A DNA stretch of 63,789 bases, counting the filler, from Anaerolineae bacterium (GTDB taxonomy: Bacteria > Chloroflexota > Anaerolineae > B4-G1 > DUEL01): NCBI GenBank assembly GCA_041082215.1. It is 5 parts of 5 records of this genome, joined end to end, with 100 filler letters (N's around TTAATTAATTAA, not from the genome) between each part and the next. Parts side by side here need not be neighbours in the genome. Positions count along the whole stretch, not along the records: positions 1 to 2,835 come from JBDOIF010000064.1; 4 more parts are not named here. One strand, 5' to 3'. The position numbers were made by a program, and so were the translations under genes. The notes below the pieces were generated by a model that was not told the origin of the DNA, did no database searches, and saw only the letters and a program-made list of their open reading frames with translations. Shown piece after piece: positions 1 through 62,163 of the stretch (position 1 is the stretch's first letter; every line of letters begins with the position of its first letter).

Positions 1-612
1 CGGCCGCAGTATGAGGCGGAGAAAGATCCGCCCCAGGAGGAGCTGGCCCGACAGTCCGAAGAGGACCTGCGGCGAGCGATGGAGGAGGCCGGCGAGGAGA
101 TGGCCTACCGGCGGCTGGACGCGCATGTGAACCTGGCCTGGCTTTACTACTACATACGTCGCCATGAGCTGGCGGAAAAAGAGGCCAACGCCGTCGTTGA
201 CTCGGTGCCGCCAGAATACCGCTTCGGGCAGGGCGGGCTGGATTCAGAGCAGTTGCCCCATTCCTTTTACTGGCTCCTCCTGGGAAAAACTTACCTGCTG
301 CTGGGCGAGGTCGCGATGCGGCAGTTCGAGCACGAGGGGCGGAGGGAGCCGGAATACGCTCGGAGGGGAGGCCAGTGCTATACTCTTGCGCTTGCCTACG
401 ATGAGCTGTACGCTGAGGATTTCCGCGACCTGCGACGGGCCCTTTACCGCATCTACATCCGCATCCGGCGGCTGAACGATGAGGAATTCGGATGGTTGCA
501 CGAGGGGATCCGGGAGGCGGTCGGGATTTGCGGGCGAAGCCCCACCCGTATGGACCGCTTCCTTGCCGAGCGGGGGTTCCCGGTGCGGCCGGAGGTGCAG
601 TGGTTGCTGTAA
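1..612 (+). CDS. TPR-like helical repeat protein, C-terminal part (5' truncated by the window edge)
   Basis: Frame is open from position 1; amphipathic helices such as AHVNLAWLYYY and LLGKTYLLLGEVA resemble TPR repeats. Confidence 0.55.
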   Translation, partial: RPQYEAEKDPPQEELARQSEEDLRRAMEEAGEEMAYRRLDAHVNLAWLYYYIRRHELAEKEANAVVDSVPPEYRFGQGGLDSEQLPHSFYWLLLGKTYLLLGEVAMRQFEHEGRREPEYARRGGQCYTLALAYDELYAEDFRDLRRALYRIYIRIRRLNDEEFGWLHEGIREAVGICGRSPTRMDRFLAERGFPVRPEVQWLL

Positions 613-1052
613 TCCGTCCATACCGCAGGCCAGATCGTTGCGGGCTGATGCAGGCGGTGAATGCTGTGTGCGCCGAAGGGATGATGCGCACCGCCCGTTA
701 TGAGCCGACCCCGGCCTGGGAGCACGCGCTGGCCGAGCCGGATTGCCCCTGCCACCTTCTGCTGGTCGCTCTGGACGGGGCTGACGTCGTGGGGTGGTGC
801 CGGCTGTTCCCGGCGGGGGAAGACAGGGAGGTCGAGTTGGGTATCGGCGTTCTGAGCGGCTACCGTCGCCAGGGGGTGGGCAGGGCGCTGCTCTCTGCGG
901 CCCTCGAATGGGCGGACAGGAGAAAGGCCGACGTGGTGCTCCAGACCCGATCAGACAATCTCCCTGCCGTTCGGCTTTTTGGGCAAAAGGGCTTCCGCAC
1001 CGTGCATCGAGAGGGTGGACTCCTGACCATGTACCATTCCTCTGATCCGTGA
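600..1052 (+). CDS. GNAT family N-acetyltransferase
   Basis: GGAGG RBS at 591-595 before GTG600; acetyl-CoA motif VLSGYRRQGVGRALL; NLPAVRLF..KGF. Confidence 0.85.
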   Translation: MVAVIRPYRRPDRCGLMQAVNAVCAEGMMRTARYEPTPAWEHALAEPDCPCHLLLVALDGADVVGWCRLFPAGEDREVELGIGVLSGYRRQGVGRALLSAALEWADRRKADVVLQTRSDNLPAVRLFGQKGFRTVHREGGLLTMYHSSDP

Positions 1053-2392
1053 ACAAGAGAGGGAGAGTAATCGTGAGAGATAGACCAATGCCTTTCCCAC
1101 AGGTTTTTTGGGATCCAGCACACGGAGAAAGGGTAGAACAGGATTGTGCCTGCGCGGCGGATGAGCCGATTGCCTGGTATGCTGGTGCAGGGGAGGAAGT
1201 GGCAGGGGAGACGGACTGCGCCTGCGCCGGGGTTGGCGAGACTTCAGTTCGTCAACTGGCCGCCCCGGTTCTCCTCCTCGCCTCAGCCCGCCCAGCGGAG
1301 TACGCAGTACGCAACACGCCCCACACCCTCACCATCTGGCTCCACCTCACCGCCCGCTGCAACCTCCGCTGCGCCTACTGCTACGCCCCCCGGGGCGACG
1401 CCGAAATGTCCCCGGAGGTCGGGCGGGCGGCTGTGGATGGGGCCATTCGCTCCGCGCAGGCCCACGGCTTCGGGGCGCTGAAACTCAAGTACGCCGGCGG
1501 TGAGCCGACCCTCAACCTTCGCACCCTCCGCGCCGTCCATCAGTACGCCCGGGCACGCGCTGTCCAGCTCGGCCTGGAACTGCGGGAAGTGGTCCTCACC
1601 AACGGCACGGCCCTCACTCCGGCGCTCCTGGCCTGGCTGCGGGAGGAGTCCATCCGGCTGGCCGTTTCCCTGGACGGCATCGGCCCGGCTCACGACCGGC
1701 AGCGGATGGAGGAGGGGGGCGCCAGCACATTCGCCCTCGTCGCCAAGGGGGTGGATCGGGCGCTGGCTATGGGCCTTACCCCTCACCTCTCGATCACCGT
1801 CACCGCCCGCAATGTGGACAGCCTGGCCGGGGTGGTGGCCTTCGCGCTGGACCGGGGCCTCCCCTTCAACCTGAATTTCGTCCGCCCTGCCCCCGGCTGC
1901 CCCGACCTGACGCCCACGCCGGGGCGCCTCATCGCTGGCCTGCGGGCCGCCCTGTCTGAGATCGAAGGTCGGCTGCAATCCACAATATGCAATCCGCCAT
2001 CTGCGGTCTCTACCCTGCTCGACCGCTGCGATTTCAGCCTCCCTCATCGCTACCCCTGCGGCGCCGGACACTCCTACCTGGTCGTAAATCCCTATGGGGA
2101 AGTGGCCCGCTGCCATATGGAGCTGGAACGGACAGTGGGCAGCGTCTGGGATGCGGACCCGCTGGCGGCGGTGCAGGCAGATGGAGGGTTCCGTAATCCA
2201 CCGGTGGAGGAAAAAGAAGGTTGCCGGGAGTGTCCCTGGCGGTATGCTTGCGCCGGTGGCTGCCCGCTGCTGGCGCGCCGGAGGGCTGGCGGAGAGGTCC
2301 TTCCATCGCCGTACTGTGAGGTCTACCGCGCGCTGCTTCCAGAACTGGTGCGGCTGGAGGGCCTGCGGCTGCTGAGGGGTTCTGCTTCGTAA
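1049..2392 (+). CDS. Radical SAM/SPASM domain protein with an N-terminal extension carrying two DCACA motifs
   Basis: CNLRCAYC, GGEP, and SPASM cysteines CGAG...RC...CRECPWRYACAGGCP...YC; exact start (1049, 1073 or 1088) uncertain. Confidence 0.92.
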   Translation: MNKRGRVIVRDRPMPFPQVFWDPAHGERVEQDCACAADEPIAWYAGAGEEVAGETDCACAGVGETSVRQLAAPVLLLASARPAEYAVRNTPHTLTIWLHLTARCNLRCAYCYAPRGDAEMSPEVGRAAVDGAIRSAQAHGFGALKLKYAGGEPTLNLRTLRAVHQYARARAVQLGLELREVVLTNGTALTPALLAWLREESIRLAVSLDGIGPAHDRQRMEEGGASTFALVAKGVDRALAMGLTPHLSITVTARNVDSLAGVVAFALDRGLPFNLNFVRPAPGCPDLTPTPGRLIAGLRAALSEIEGRLQSTICNPPSAVSTLLDRCDFSLPHRYPCGAGHSYLVVNPYGEVARCHMELERTVGSVWDADPLAAVQADGGFRNPPVEEKEGCRECPWRYACAGGCPLLARRRAGGEVLPSPYCEVYRALLPELVRLEGLRLLRGSAS

Positions 2393-2936: not shown

Positions 2937-3011
2937 GCACTGCAATATGCAGCAATGCTGGCAGAAGAGAGCGTCTATAGGCTGGAGATGGCGGATGAGG
3001 TTTCTGGCTGA
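2937..3011 (+). CDS. C-terminal fragment of a DUF433-type antitoxin (5' truncated)
   Basis: Translates ALQYAAMLAEE...; overlaps the start of a DUF5615 PIN gene, the usual pairing. Confidence 0.6.
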   Translation, partial: ALQYAAMLAEESVYRLEMADEVSG

Positions 3012-3366
3012 TATGGGGATATCACCTCAGAGCGTAGGACATTTGCGAAGGATGGAGTATGATGTAGTACATCTGAGTGAAGAAGGGTTGGAGCGGTTGA
3101 CGGATTCACCAATATTGGCTAAAGGGCGTGCTGAAGGGCGGGTGGTTCTGACACACGATCTGGATTTTGGCGAGTTGATAGCGGCAAGCGGCGCGGACCT
3201 GCCTAGCGTGGTGATATTTCGACTGCGCGATATGCGGCCGGAGAGAGTAAATTGGCATTTGGAGGAGATCGTCAGGCGATATGAAGAGCTATTAGAGAGA
3301 GGAGCCATAATGAGCGTGGAGGAAGGCAGTGTACGTGTCCGTTCTTTGCCCATACGGAGAGAATGA
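2995..3366 (+). CDS. DUF5615 / VapC45-like PIN toxin
   Basis: MRFLADMGISP...D..IL...RVVLTHDLDFG...SVVIFRL. Confidence 0.85.
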   Translation: MRFLADMGISPQSVGHLRRMEYDVVHLSEEGLERLTDSPILAKGRAEGRVVLTHDLDFGELIAASGADLPSVVIFRLRDMRPERVNWHLEEIVRRYEELLERGAIMSVEEGSVRVRSLPIRRE

Positions 3367-4910
3367 GTTACTATAATAATATCACCGACGACCTGGACGC
3401 TTTGCTTTCCGTCCTGCCGGAAGACATCCGGGGGGCGCTGGAGCGCATCGGTCGGCGGGACGATCTGCTGGAAGTGATCCTCGACCTGGGCCGCGTTCCC
3501 ACGGCCCGCTTCACCGATGAGGAGGTGGTGCTGCGGGAGACGGAGGTCACCCAGGAGGAGATCCAATATGTGGTGGAGCGGGTGGGGGAGTTCGACGCCG
3601 ACAACAGGGCTGGCATCGCCCGCACCCTCCACCGCATCGCTGCCATCCGTAACCGCAAGGGGGACGTGGTCGGCCTTACCTGCCGGGTGGGCCGCGCTGT
3701 CTACGGCACCATCGCCATCATCCAGGACATTGTCGAGAGCGGCAAGAGCATCCTCCTCGTAGGCCGGCCCGGCGTGGGCAAGACGACGATGCTGCGCGAG
3801 GCGGCCCGTGTTCTGGCGGAGAAAAAGCGGGTCATCGTCGTGGATACCTCCAACGAGATCGGCGGCGACGGGGACATCCCCCATCCCGCCGTCGGCCGCG
3901 CCCGCCGCATGCAGGTGGAAATGCCCTCCCTCCAGCATGAGGTGATGATCGAGGCGGTGGAAAACCATAACCCCGAGGTCATCGTCATAGATGAGATCGG
4001 GCGGGAGCTGGAGGCGCTGGCTGCCCGGACCATCGCCGAGCGCGGCGTGCAGTTGATCGCCACCGCCCACGGCAATACGCTGGATAACCTCCTCCTCAAC
4101 CCCACCCTCTCCGACCTGGTGGGCGGGATCGAGAGCGTGACCCTCTCCGACGAAGAGGCCCGCCGCCGCGGGACGCAGAAGACCATCCTGGAGCGACGCG
4201 CTCCACCCACCTTCGACGTGCTGATCGAGATCCAGGACCGCCAGCGGCTGTTGATCCACCGCAGCGTGGCCGAATCGGTAGATGCCCTGCTGCGCGGCCA
4301 GCCCCTCCAGGCCGAGCTGCGATACCGGGATAAGGAGGGAGAGGTCCACACCGAGCAGGTTGTCCCTCTTTCACTGGAAGAGCGGGAGAGCAGCAGAGAG
4401 GAAGAAAGGGCTTCTTTTCCTCCCCCTGTGGCGGTCGAAACCCTGGCGCCGGTGCGGGTCTACCCCTACGGCGTGGCGCGCAACCGGATGGAGCGGGCCG
4501 CCCGACGGATGCACCTGCCTGTCTATCTGGTGGATGAGCTGGGACAGGCAGAGGTGGTGGTCACCACAAAGAATTTCTACCGTAAGCGGACCCGTACCGT
4601 GGTGGATGCCGAACGGCGGGGGCTGCCCATCTATGTCCTGCGGGCCAATACGGTATCTCAGATGGAGTCGGCCCTGAGCGACCTGTTTGAGCTGGAAGGC
4701 CGCCAGCCCGCCGACCAGCTCCATCGGGCGATCCGCGAGGCGGAGGAGGCCATCCGAAAGGTGCTGGAGGGGGCATCCGAGGTCGAACTTTCTCCCCAGG
4801 ACGCCTATATCCGCCGCCGCCAGCACGAAATGGCCCGCGCGGCCAACCTGAGCTCCTATTCGGTCGGAGAGGAGCCCAACCGACGGGTGCGGATCTGCCG
4901 GGAGGGTTGA
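3363..4910 (+). CDS. Ycf45/SpoIIIAA-like AAA ATPase with C-terminal R3H domain
   Basis: Walker A GRPGVGKTT, VDTSNEIGGDG, VIDEIG, ATAHG; C-terminal RRRQH. Confidence 0.9.
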   Translation: MSYYNNITDDLDALLSVLPEDIRGALERIGRRDDLLEVILDLGRVPTARFTDEEVVLRETEVTQEEIQYVVERVGEFDADNRAGIARTLHRIAAIRNRKGDVVGLTCRVGRAVYGTIAIIQDIVESGKSILLVGRPGVGKTTMLREAARVLAEKKRVIVVDTSNEIGGDGDIPHPAVGRARRMQVEMPSLQHEVMIEAVENHNPEVIVIDEIGRELEALAARTIAERGVQLIATAHGNTLDNLLLNPTLSDLVGGIESVTLSDEEARRRGTQKTILERRAPPTFDVLIEIQDRQRLLIHRSVAESVDALLRGQPLQAELRYRDKEGEVHTEQVVPLSLEERESSREEERASFPPPVAVETLAPVRVYPYGVARNRMERAARRMHLPVYLVDELGQAEVVVTTKNFYRKRTRTVVDAERRGLPIYVLRANTVSQMESALSDLFELEGRQPADQLHRAIREAEEAIRKVLEGASEVELSPQDAYIRRRQHEMARAANLSSYSVGEEPNRRVRICREG

Positions 4911-21642: not shown

Positions 21643-21742
21643 NNNNNNNNNNNNNNNNNNNNNNNNNNNNNNNNNNNNNNNNNNNNTTAATTAATTAANN
21701 NNNNNNNNNNNNNNNNNNNNNNNNNNNNNNNNNNNNNNNNNN
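21643..21742. other. Artificial contig linker
   Basis: N runs flanking TTAATTAATTAA. Confidence 0.99.
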
Positions 21743-53134: not shown

Positions 53135-53234
53135 NNNNNNNNNNNNNNNNNNNNNNNNNNNNNNNNNNNNNNNNNNNNTTAATTAATTAANNNNNNNNNN
53201 NNNNNNNNNNNNNNNNNNNNNNNNNNNNNNNNNN
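53135..53234. other. Artificial contig linker
   Basis: N runs flanking TTAATTAATTAA. Confidence 0.99.
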
Positions 53235-62063: not shown

Positions 62064-62163
62064 NNNNNNNNNNNNNNNNNNNNNNNNNNNNNNNNNNNNN
62101 NNNNNNNTTAATTAATTAANNNNNNNNNNNNNNNNNNNNNNNNNNNNNNNNNNNNNNNNNNNN
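62064..62163. other. Artificial contig linker
   Basis: N runs flanking TTAATTAATTAA. Confidence 0.99.

Follow-up and report, generated by a model that had tools for sequence, protein, structure and literature searches.

The window analysed here, a stretch of 63,789 nucleotides from an Anaerolineae bacterium of the phylum Chloroflexota (GenBank assembly GCA_041082215.1), carries near its start a gene for a radical S-adenosylmethionine (SAM) enzyme with a SPASM domain, and our analysis indicates that the first ~65 residues of this protein are probably a precursor-like peptide of two tandem units, carried in cis by the CteB-type radical SAM/SPASM maturase that would act on it. An earlier note on this DNA had drawn attention to two D-C-A-C-A motifs in an N-terminal extension of the enzyme and had offered two explanations, a fused and repeated substrate or a new metal- or Fe-S-binding module. 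The conservation of the motif, its variable copy number, the occurrence of the same core in stand-alone open reading frames (ORFs), the co-folding predictions and the existence of lineages with one-cysteine units all favour the fused substrate. Taken as a whole, the comparative and modelling evidence supports a CteB-like maturase that carries its precursor in cis and belongs to a STAND-NTPase cassette. To our knowledge, every radical SAM/SPASM peptide maturase known acts on a separately encoded peptide, and a full-text literature search, made in one library only, returned no description of such an enzyme-precursor fusion.

The gene lies on a contig of 2,835 bp (C43), and the ORF and its parts are as follows, RRE standing for the recognition element of peptides made by the ribosome and then modified post-translationally (RiPPs).

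1049..2392, + strand: radical SAM/SPASM enzyme ORF with the putative fused N-terminal peptide; 447 amino acids from GTG 1049
1091..1156, + strand: putative peptide unit 1, a leader-like P-F-P-Q-V-F-W and then E-Q-D-C-A-C-A (DCACA at 1142-1156)
1166..1228, + strand: putative peptide unit 2, P-I-A-W-Y and, further on, G-E-T-D-C-A-C-A (DCACA at 1214-1228)
1229..1333, + strand: short linker, in which the last RRE helix, R-Q-L-A-A-P-V-L-L-L (1250-1279), and a spacer remain, according to the alignment and to structure mapping onto CteB
1358..1381, + strand: CxxxCxxC, with the radical SAM [4Fe-4S] cluster ligands C104, C108 and C111 (numbered from GTG 1049), all in invariant columns
2057..2317, + strand: SPASM region with seven invariant cysteines, including C-x2-C-x5-C-x3-C, by alignment to the SPASM domains of CteB and anSME

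Both DCACA motifs stand in the frame of this ORF, as the earlier note had read them, the first encoded by GAT TGT GCC TGC GCG and the second by GAC TGC GCC TGC GCC, exactly 24 codons downstream. The two copies differ at three synonymous third positions, which means that the repeat is maintained as protein sequence and did not arise by recent duplication of the DNA. All three candidate starts, GTG 1049, GTG 1073 and ATG 1088 (the start in the database record), lie 5' of both motifs, and the N-terminal sequence is conserved at the protein level, which rules out a start downstream of the motifs, a finding that would have undone the original proposal. GTG 1073 is likely the true start, since its product, M-R-D-R-P-M-P-F-P-Q, agrees best with the M/V-K-D-x-T-x-F-P-Q of homologues; it also has the best Shine-Dalgarno sequence of the candidates, GGGAGAG at 1061-1067, five bases before it. 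The extension had been described as acidic, apparently unstructured and about 90 amino acids long. Counted from ATG 1088, the segment before CxxxCxxC indeed has 90 amino acids, with 12 D or E against 5 K or R, and in an AlphaFold2 model of the 434-amino-acid form of the window protein the predicted local distance difference test (pLDDT) score is below 50 over residues 1-67. Nor has a separate precursor gene come to light in this genome: a six-frame scan of its 3.53 Mb finds DCAC seven times, and only the two copies in the radical SAM ORF have a plausible coding context.

The motif is conserved far beyond the window. A word-indexed search gave 1,995 matches, and counts were made on the best 120, which with the window's own record set aside leaves 119. 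At least one DCAC copy precedes CxxxCxxC in 108 of these 119 listed homologues (two copies in 89, one in 18 and three in 1); ten have none and one is a fragment, and nine of the ten without the motif have called N termini of just 13-96 residues. The units follow the consensus P-x-[IV]-L-W-S-x-P-x-E-x-A-E-x-D-C-A-C-[APS], with copies 19-25 residues apart (mostly 24), with E at position -2 in 188 of 199 units and with P at -14 in 124 of the 199. An exhaustive profile search of 1.84 billion representatives (50% clustering) yielded 1,624 proteins at E <= 1e-30. Among its top 150, all of at least 450 bits, 94 contain DCAC and 31 a CxC/Asp variant such as CDC, DCDC, DCNC or CDAC; the remaining 25, which have neither by the pattern used, include NCAC, HCAC, DCAP, QCPC and more than ten QCS repeats, and about ten of them are N-terminally short or split. 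This pattern is far beyond chance.

Members of the family occur in Chloroflexota, in Nostoc and in actinobacterial and other metagenome-assembled genomes (MAGs), and the core varies among them, reading QCDCDGGDCAC in Nostoc, CEDCAC in MAGs of Pseudonocardiaceae and Solirubrobacteraceae, and DCR three times, or [DE]C, in other Chloroflexota. Copy number ranges from one to four or more per protein; at three loci (L009, L014 and L092) additional copies lie in the RRE-radical SAM linker, which at a fourth (L019) reads HCAC. Some lineages have units with one cysteine (DCAP, DCR three times, QCS repeats); the extreme is P0190, a protein of 589 amino acids in whose N-terminal 250 residues more than ten [AV]-Q-C-S repeats replace the DCAC units. 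Thus, both the conservation and the copy-number variation for which the earlier note had proposed to look were found among the collected homologues. Within a sample of the phylum, the gene is present in 40 of 401 genomes, clustered in few families, with a single match in 37 of the 40 and two matches in three. As a separate observation, a number of homologues (P0005, P0009-P0011, P0015-P0021, and loci L054-L067) have low-complexity repeats arrayed in tandem in the stretch that links RRE and catalytic domain; the copy number of these repeats varies among close relatives, for example ~3 to 8 copies of H-A-F-T-F or 3 to 5 of S-C-N-L-A-F-L-P/Q; the window copy has neither.

The catalytic part belongs to the radical SAM superfamily, Pfam PF04055 (Radical_SAM) matching residues 100-250 with 48.6 bits against a cut-off of 29.5, and the CxxxCxxC columns are invariant in the 91 sequences aligned. 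All seven SPASM cysteines are present and invariant (C324, C342, C379, C382, C388, C392 and C410 in the 434-amino-acid form); the Pfam SPASM model itself, PF13186, does not match the window protein at E <= 0.01 and gives 17.9 bits against a cut-off of 21.5 in the homologue P0003. The best partial NCBIfam matches, at E 1e-36 to 1e-30, are to rSAM_nif11, PapB, QhpD and the SCIFF maturase, that is, to peptide maturases including formers of Cys-to-Asp/Glu thioethers. No curated family claims the window protein, because all of these scores fall far below the equivalog cut-offs: 103.5 against 425 bits for TIGR03974 (CteB/ScfB SCIFF maturase), 120.8 against 340 for NF047865 (PapB), 120.6 against 453 for TIGR03906 (QhpD), and 125.2 against 518.7 for TIGR04064 (nif11-like maturase), the last matching only residues 87-239.

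The fold was read from P0003, whose AlphaFold2 model has a mean pLDDT of 86.8 (below 50 at residues 24-54). Its residues 72-503 align with residues 1-450 of CteB chain 5wgg_A, RRE included, at a Z score of 32.9 and a root-mean-square deviation of 5.0 over 402 residues; Foldseek agrees on CteB, and a profile search of the PDB gives CteB as the best relative (E 4.7e-38). The family is therefore CteB-like, consisting of RRE, radical SAM and SPASM parts plus ~60 extra N-terminal residues that bear the units. Because Pfam PqqD is not detected in P0003 (a weak match, 21.0 against 23.4 bits, occurs in the enzyme of locus L116), the RRE of full-length homologues is assigned by structure only, through the alignment of P0003 residues 72-145 with the CteB N terminus. 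A search for longer proteins returned no longer fused forms, which is weak evidence, since the profile search did find one (P0165, described below).

The earlier note had also asked whether the core occurs as an ORF of its own, and it does so beside the nearest enzymes that lack the fusion. Stand-alone precursors were found at three of nine distinct non-fused sister loci: a 50-amino-acid ORF at L116 (2805-2957) ending CQDDCACENNN, a 38-amino-acid ORF at L117 (2486-2602) ending GQCDACGNDNNLE, and a small ORF at L167 (1083-1370) ending GAQCDCACSPGRITFI. Their C-terminal cores read DDCAC, QCDAC or QCDCAC, and all three lie 0-60 nt upstream of, and co-directional with, RRE-radical SAM-SPASM genes without a fused motif; the loose motif pattern occurs in only 23 of 6,283 small ORFs from 80 loci. 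In a FastTree phylogeny of 114 catalytic domains, from which the N termini were excluded, the L116 and L117 enzymes form the sister group of the fused clade (support 93), inside which the L167 enzyme lies; the supports are local and the inner forks open, and the tree is read for neighbourhood, not for the order of events. No other motif-bearing candidate substrate was seen in the window genome or within 1.5 kb at loci L003-L032 (the window's locus and 29 of other genomes). Several apparent split genes were rejected: those at L031 and L114 are frameshifts inside a fused gene, that at L053 is a deletion variant without a start codon, and of the two matches in a search for shorter forms with P0003 residues 1-150, one is cut at a contig end and the other frameshifted, so that neither is a split gene.

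Co-folding of P0003 residues 1-60 with residues 61-508, together with SAM and three 4Fe-4S clusters, gave ipSAE interface scores of 0.74, 0.75 and 0.74, the best of three controls scoring 0.02; the ipSAE mark applied is reached by 116 of 157 solved complexes and by 2 of 215 mismatched pairs. The runs share at least 59% of their contacts, with a partner pLDDT of 44-46. In the predicted complex, peptide residues 8-12 (P-Q-I-F-W) pair with RRE residues 97-103 and 120-127, and residues 6-27, equivalent to unit 1 of the window protein, touch the RRE at 93-103 and 120-127 and the ends of the barrel strands at 148-152, 200-204, 236-238, 258-260, 301-303 and 327-331. The peptide up to residue 27, E-Q-D-C-A-C included, is further predicted to contact 379-405, 464 and 467, among which are the invariant SPASM cysteines C399 and C467. 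Whether the peptide reaches the active site was a check proposed in the earlier note; for unit 1 of P0003 the prediction says that it does, placing the unit on the RRE and in the barrel, but this docking does not carry over as such to the window copy, which has no RRE.

Our data suggest a model whereby each unit would combine a hydrophobic leader, a short strand (P-x-I/V-L/F-W), with an acidic cysteine core (E-x-D-C-A-C) ~9 residues further on. In full-length relatives, beta-3 of the RRE is the predicted pairing partner of the leader strand, and the core is predicted to thread into the barrel beside the first auxiliary cluster; the corresponding cluster of CteB keeps a site open for a substrate cysteine. 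The 5'-deoxyadenosyl radical would then take a hydrogen atom, and the cysteine sulfur would be joined in a thioether, the likeliest partner being a carbon of a neighbouring Asp or Glu, by analogy with PapB and QhpD, in a reaction that may run within one chain or between subunits. In the window copy, from which the RRE has been deleted, the covalent tether and active-site contacts would have to serve for recognition. The arrangement P-x-Phi-Phi-W ... E-x-D-C-A-C is that of an encoded RiPP precursor with leader and core, here in fused form, and, as in borosins, core and enzyme share one polypeptide encoded by a single ORF, as they do in 108 of the 119 listed homologues; such a polypeptide may act autocatalytically.

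The loss of the RRE from the window's copy appears to be genuine. Compared with most homologues, the window protein is missing ~60 RRE residues (three strands and two helices) and keeps the last RRE helix in the alignment, so that the N-terminal PqqD-like winged helix with its three-stranded sheet, the mark of an RRE-dependent maturase, is not found in it. In hot-spring metagenomes of another study, contigs from three DNA runs cover 388-1382/1386 without an indel and with four base differences, and because they bridge the stretch in this way, the loss is not an assembly artefact; the short RRE-less allele, with both units, recurs in three independent metagenomes, and none of the amino-acid changes among the allele differences falls on an invariant or near-invariant column. 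RRE-less members also occur elsewhere in the family (P0037, P0112, L111/L112 and L115), on separate branches of the tree and always with the cysteine core kept, as would be expected if tethering makes the RRE dispensable. At L111 and L112, the hydrophobic strand is gone as well and the cysteine core retained, which, in this small number of cases, is what a division into leader and core predicts. Contigs of an RNA-library run (X7) cover only 688-856, 1340-1697 and 1718-1874, with none over 856-1340, at a depth of 3-4. Over 1331-1425, all four runs show a 3- to 5-fold increase in summed contig depth, accompanied by many loose ends. Contigs of other organisms map there, onto the conserved stretch coding for CxxxCxxC, and the increase does not indicate extra copies.

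Two genes precede the radical SAM gene in the window.

1..612, + strand: 3' end (last 203 codons) of a large STAND NTPase-TPR gene, c1, with the ORF open at the window start
492..1052, + strand: GNAT acetyltransferase gene (Pfam Acetyltransf_1, E 6.5e-17)

The first 147 bases of the window are the end of another contig, C3, on which c1 begins and where its sequence has AAA_16, NACHT-like and TPR matches in Pfam. The true start of the GNAT gene is probably near 612-650, and its stop codon overlaps GTG 1049 of the radical SAM gene. Clustering of the neighbours at 20 loci of 19 other genomes revealed a cassette in which c3 (one or two Sll1717-like P-loop ATPases), c2 (an AAA_16/NACHT-like ATPase) and c1 (a protein of ~1,000 amino acids with AAA_16 and TPRs) are followed by the radical SAM gene as the last member; across C3 and C43, the window genome has the identical order, with the GNAT gene inserted before the radical SAM gene. 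A STAND NTPase and a TPR sensor, both in c1, thus stand in one operon with the enzyme. At 19 of the 20 sampled loci c1 is present, directly upstream and co-directional at 17, and it also precedes the radical SAM gene in Nostoc, in Candidatus Vecturithrix and at most metagenome loci with enough upstream sequence; the split-precursor loci are without it. A GNAT homologue lies directly upstream of the radical SAM gene at 22 loci of close relatives, and GNAT was rejected as a general partner, being adjacent at none of 20 more distant loci, where the sole other match (L038) is ~5 kb away.

Pfam detects no effector domain in the window genome's own cassette. Domains typical of conflict systems do occur in some relatives: at L038, CHAT is fused to c2, and at L039 and L040, SIR2_2 and PNP_UDP_1 proteins flank the cassette core. 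Within one Chloroflexota family (L039, L040, L044, L046 and L051), two flanking proteins, one with SIR2_2 and one with PNP_UDP_1, fall into one similarity cluster, which suggests a shared adaptor domain coupling different effectors to the NTPases. The protein P0165 (1,620 amino acids), known from its protein record alone, unites in a single chain CHAT, a STAND NTPase, TPRs, the sequence E-I-I-L-P...G-G-G-G-S-D-C-A-C, an RRE and radical SAM/SPASM. Besides the adjacent GNAT gene, the five upstream genes that were scanned encode only P-loop, STAND and TPR proteins by Pfam, NCBIfam and PADLOC. PADLOC 2.0 matched no system, giving only generic radical SAM matches to pVip (E 2e-13) and one weak match to mad8, and sequence searches of the PDB returned only generic TPR matches for c1 and nothing for c3.

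Several points weigh against the fused-substrate interpretation. The modification, its type and its site are all what we infer from comparison and modelling, and the acid precedes the cysteine in the units, the reverse of the order in the substrates of PapB and QhpD, PapA and QhpC, where acidic residues come after the cysteine. Stand-alone precursors were found at only three loci, two of them mutually related, and searches for shorter split forms yielded only truncated or frameshifted records. Since leader-RRE complexes have been solved (CteB-CteA, SuiB-SuiA), the co-folding pass may show likeness to these and not binding by this copy; unlike the calibration, the run used an alignment of our own and riding ligands, its partner pLDDT is below 50, and only unit 1 was placed. 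The single-chain AlphaFold2 models likewise have pLDDT below 50 here, in P0003 at residues 24-54 and in the window protein at 1-67. As the window copy has no RRE, the docking mode of P0003 cannot apply to it as such. Nine of the ten codons that differ from the alleles in the three other metagenomes are non-synonymous, which fits relaxed constraint as well as diversification, ten sites being too few to decide. Finally, no peptidase or exporter was detected in the five upstream genes (by Pfam, NCBIfam and PADLOC) or among the sampled cassette proteins, the only neighbours scanned, so that the locus is not a classical RiPP pathway.

Three other explanations have to be set against these data. If the Cys/Asp repeats were a metal- or Fe-S-binding module, such as an extra cluster, a redox relay or a sensor serving the catalytic core, the two CxC pairs with their flanking carboxylates could ligate the metal, the Cys- and acid-rich composition would resemble that of some metal-binding tails, and the retention of the motif even in RRE-less enzymes would reflect a tie to the core. 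We consider such a module very unlikely, because the single copy in 18 of the 119 listed homologues supplies only two cysteines, units with one cysteine (DCAP, DCR three times, QCS) fit a fixed four-cysteine site poorly, and both the number and the position of the motifs vary; in addition, AlphaFold2 shows no folded module, the motif ends stand-alone ORFs with a leader-plus-core layout beside RRE-bearing enzymes, and co-folding is predicted to place it in the substrate channel. The predicted pose, on the other hand, would suit an inhibitor as well as a substrate, and the tail might be an unmodified docking or regulatory element, either a pseudo-substrate plugging its own RRE and active site or a ligand of the STAND TPRs, with the real substrate elsewhere. 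The association of fused forms with the STAND-TPR gene, which the three split-precursor loci do not have, the direct joining of CHAT-STAND-TPR to DCAC-RRE-radical SAM in P0165, and the failure to find a peptidase or exporter in the scanned cassette genes are all compatible with this role. It nevertheless seems quite unlikely to us, given that the genome and the 1.5-kb surroundings at L003-L032 offer no other motif-bearing substrate, that a near-invariant E-x-D-C-A-C is what would be expected of a chemically reacting core, and that precursor genes of the usual kind, carrying the same core, accompany the sister enzymes.

The remaining explanation accepts the family feature as real and concerns the window copy alone, which might be a decaying allele whose RRE loss inactivated substrate recognition, leaving the gene to drift. 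Such a course would fit the ~60 missing amino acids, the excess of non-synonymous changes (9 of 10 codon differences to near-identical alleles) and the partial coverage of the gene, at a depth of 3-4, by RNA-library contigs. Its ORF is intact, however, all invariant catalytic and SPASM residues are present, and the nine amino-acid changes spare every invariant or near-invariant column; the same short allele with both units recurs in contigs of three runs of another study, RRE-less forms have appeared repeatedly (P0037, P0112, L111/L112, L115), and a terminal branch length of 0.2 is ordinary for the clade. Decay is therefore unlikely in our judgement. Under the favoured reading, a precursor-like peptide fused to its maturase, the modified tail would probably act inside the cell as part of the NTPase system and not as a secreted compound, because the cassette genes scanned yielded neither a peptidase nor an exporter and the gene stands last in an NTPase cassette.

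A more specific role is doubtful, and we offer it tentatively: the TPR sensor of the neighbouring STAND NTPase might read the crosslinked N-terminal tail as a signal, so that a RiPP-type modification would switch an NLR-like immune or cell-death system of filamentous bacteria, which in some lineages has CHAT, SIR2 or PNP effectors. Reducing power, SAM and intact Fe-S clusters would all be needed for the reaction, so the tail's state could, if this were true, report on all three during infection or stress, and the fusion of peptide and enzyme would keep the signal private, with one tail per enzyme.

Among known systems, CteB (PDB 5WGG/5WHY; TIGR03974) is the best structural and profile match, sharing the N-terminal RRE, the radical SAM barrel and the seven-cysteine SPASM with full-length relatives and acting on a Cys-rich peptide; its substrate CteA is encoded by a separate gene, whereas the peptide here lies within the enzyme, and the window copy differs further in having no RRE and a STAND-NTPase cassette as its context. 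PapB, of the ranthipeptide systems, and QhpD, of quinohemoprotein amine dehydrogenase maturation, whose models give partial NCBIfam matches at E 7e-35, link cysteine sulfur to side-chain carbons of Asp or Glu, and the core here pairs cysteine with Asp and Glu; in contrast, their substrates are separate polypeptides, and here the acidic residues come before the cysteine. The target of QhpD is a protein subunit that remains intracellular. In the borosin OphMA, enzyme and core peptide form one polypeptide, and each molecule carries its own substrate. Unlike the present protein, OphMA is a SAM N-methyltransferase with a C-terminal core, of unrelated chemistry and fold, with no Fe-S cluster and no RRE.

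The closest parallel to the cassette is the coupling of FxSxx-COOH peptides and FxsB radical SAM-SPASM enzymes to AP-ATPase-TPR proteins in multicellular bacteria, for which the predicted role of the processed peptide is that of a signal or toxin (Kaur et al., eLife 2020, PMC7159879). What the two systems have in common is that a peptide, a radical SAM/SPASM enzyme and a TPR-bearing STAND NTPase occur together, in bacteria that are filamentous or multicellular; in the passages of that paper on FxSxx systems, however, the peptide is separate, is cut by a zincin peptidase, ends in a C-terminal FxSxx and is accompanied by vWA-MoxR partners, and the fused form is not described there (PMC7159879). 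Here, in contrast, we see an N-terminal fusion, an E-x-D-C-A-C core and no peptidase among the scanned genes, and the FxsB model of NCBIfam matches the window protein at only E 1.3e-15. According to its abstract, a recent study describes CrpC, an RRE-bearing SPASM radical SAM enzyme that forms ranthionine links on the Cys-rich CrpA (ACS Bio Med Chem Au 2026, PMC13692751); there too a Cys-rich protein is modified and not a short secreted peptide, although CrpA is a separate protein and archaeal, and the abstract mentions no STAND cassette (PMC13692751).

If the fusion of precursor and maturase is what it appears to be, the family would be a large natural radical-SAM counterpart of the borosins, many "orphan" RRE-bearing maturases would be explained, and a one-protein system would be available for studying thioether formation. 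The link to STAND-TPR proteins, and to CHAT, SIR2 or PNP in some lineages, suggests that filamentous bacteria (Chloroflexota, Nostoc and actinobacteria) put peptide crosslinking to use in intracellular signalling or immunity as well as in making secreted natural products.

Some further observations concern the window as a whole. It consists of several contigs joined by N spacers, with paired 44-base N runs at the joins (2836-2935, 21643-21742, 53135-53234 and 62064-62163, separating C43, C44, C45 and then others), and contigs that are neighbours across a spacer need not be neighbours in the genome. At its two ends, C43 has a 147-base overlap with the end of C3 (upstream) and, reversed, with the end of C137 (downstream). 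A partial ORF on the + strand of C43 (2551-2835), continuing on the reverse of C137, has a C-x-C ... C-x-H pattern recalling a SWIM zinc finger; it has no Pfam match in its truncated form, and only one weak match (L068) occurs near the radical SAM gene elsewhere. Contig C44 encodes a DUF5615/PIN-like protein (2947-3366, E 1.2e-22) and a 515-amino-acid protein with AAA/SpoIIIAA-like ATPase, PTPase-like and R3H domains (3363-4910), both unrelated to the radical SAM finding. Outside the window, at ~64.8-73.5 kb of contig C84, three radical SAM/SPASM paralogues that are 24-27% identical to the window protein lie within 9 kb, and this cluster may be a separate peptide-modification locus.

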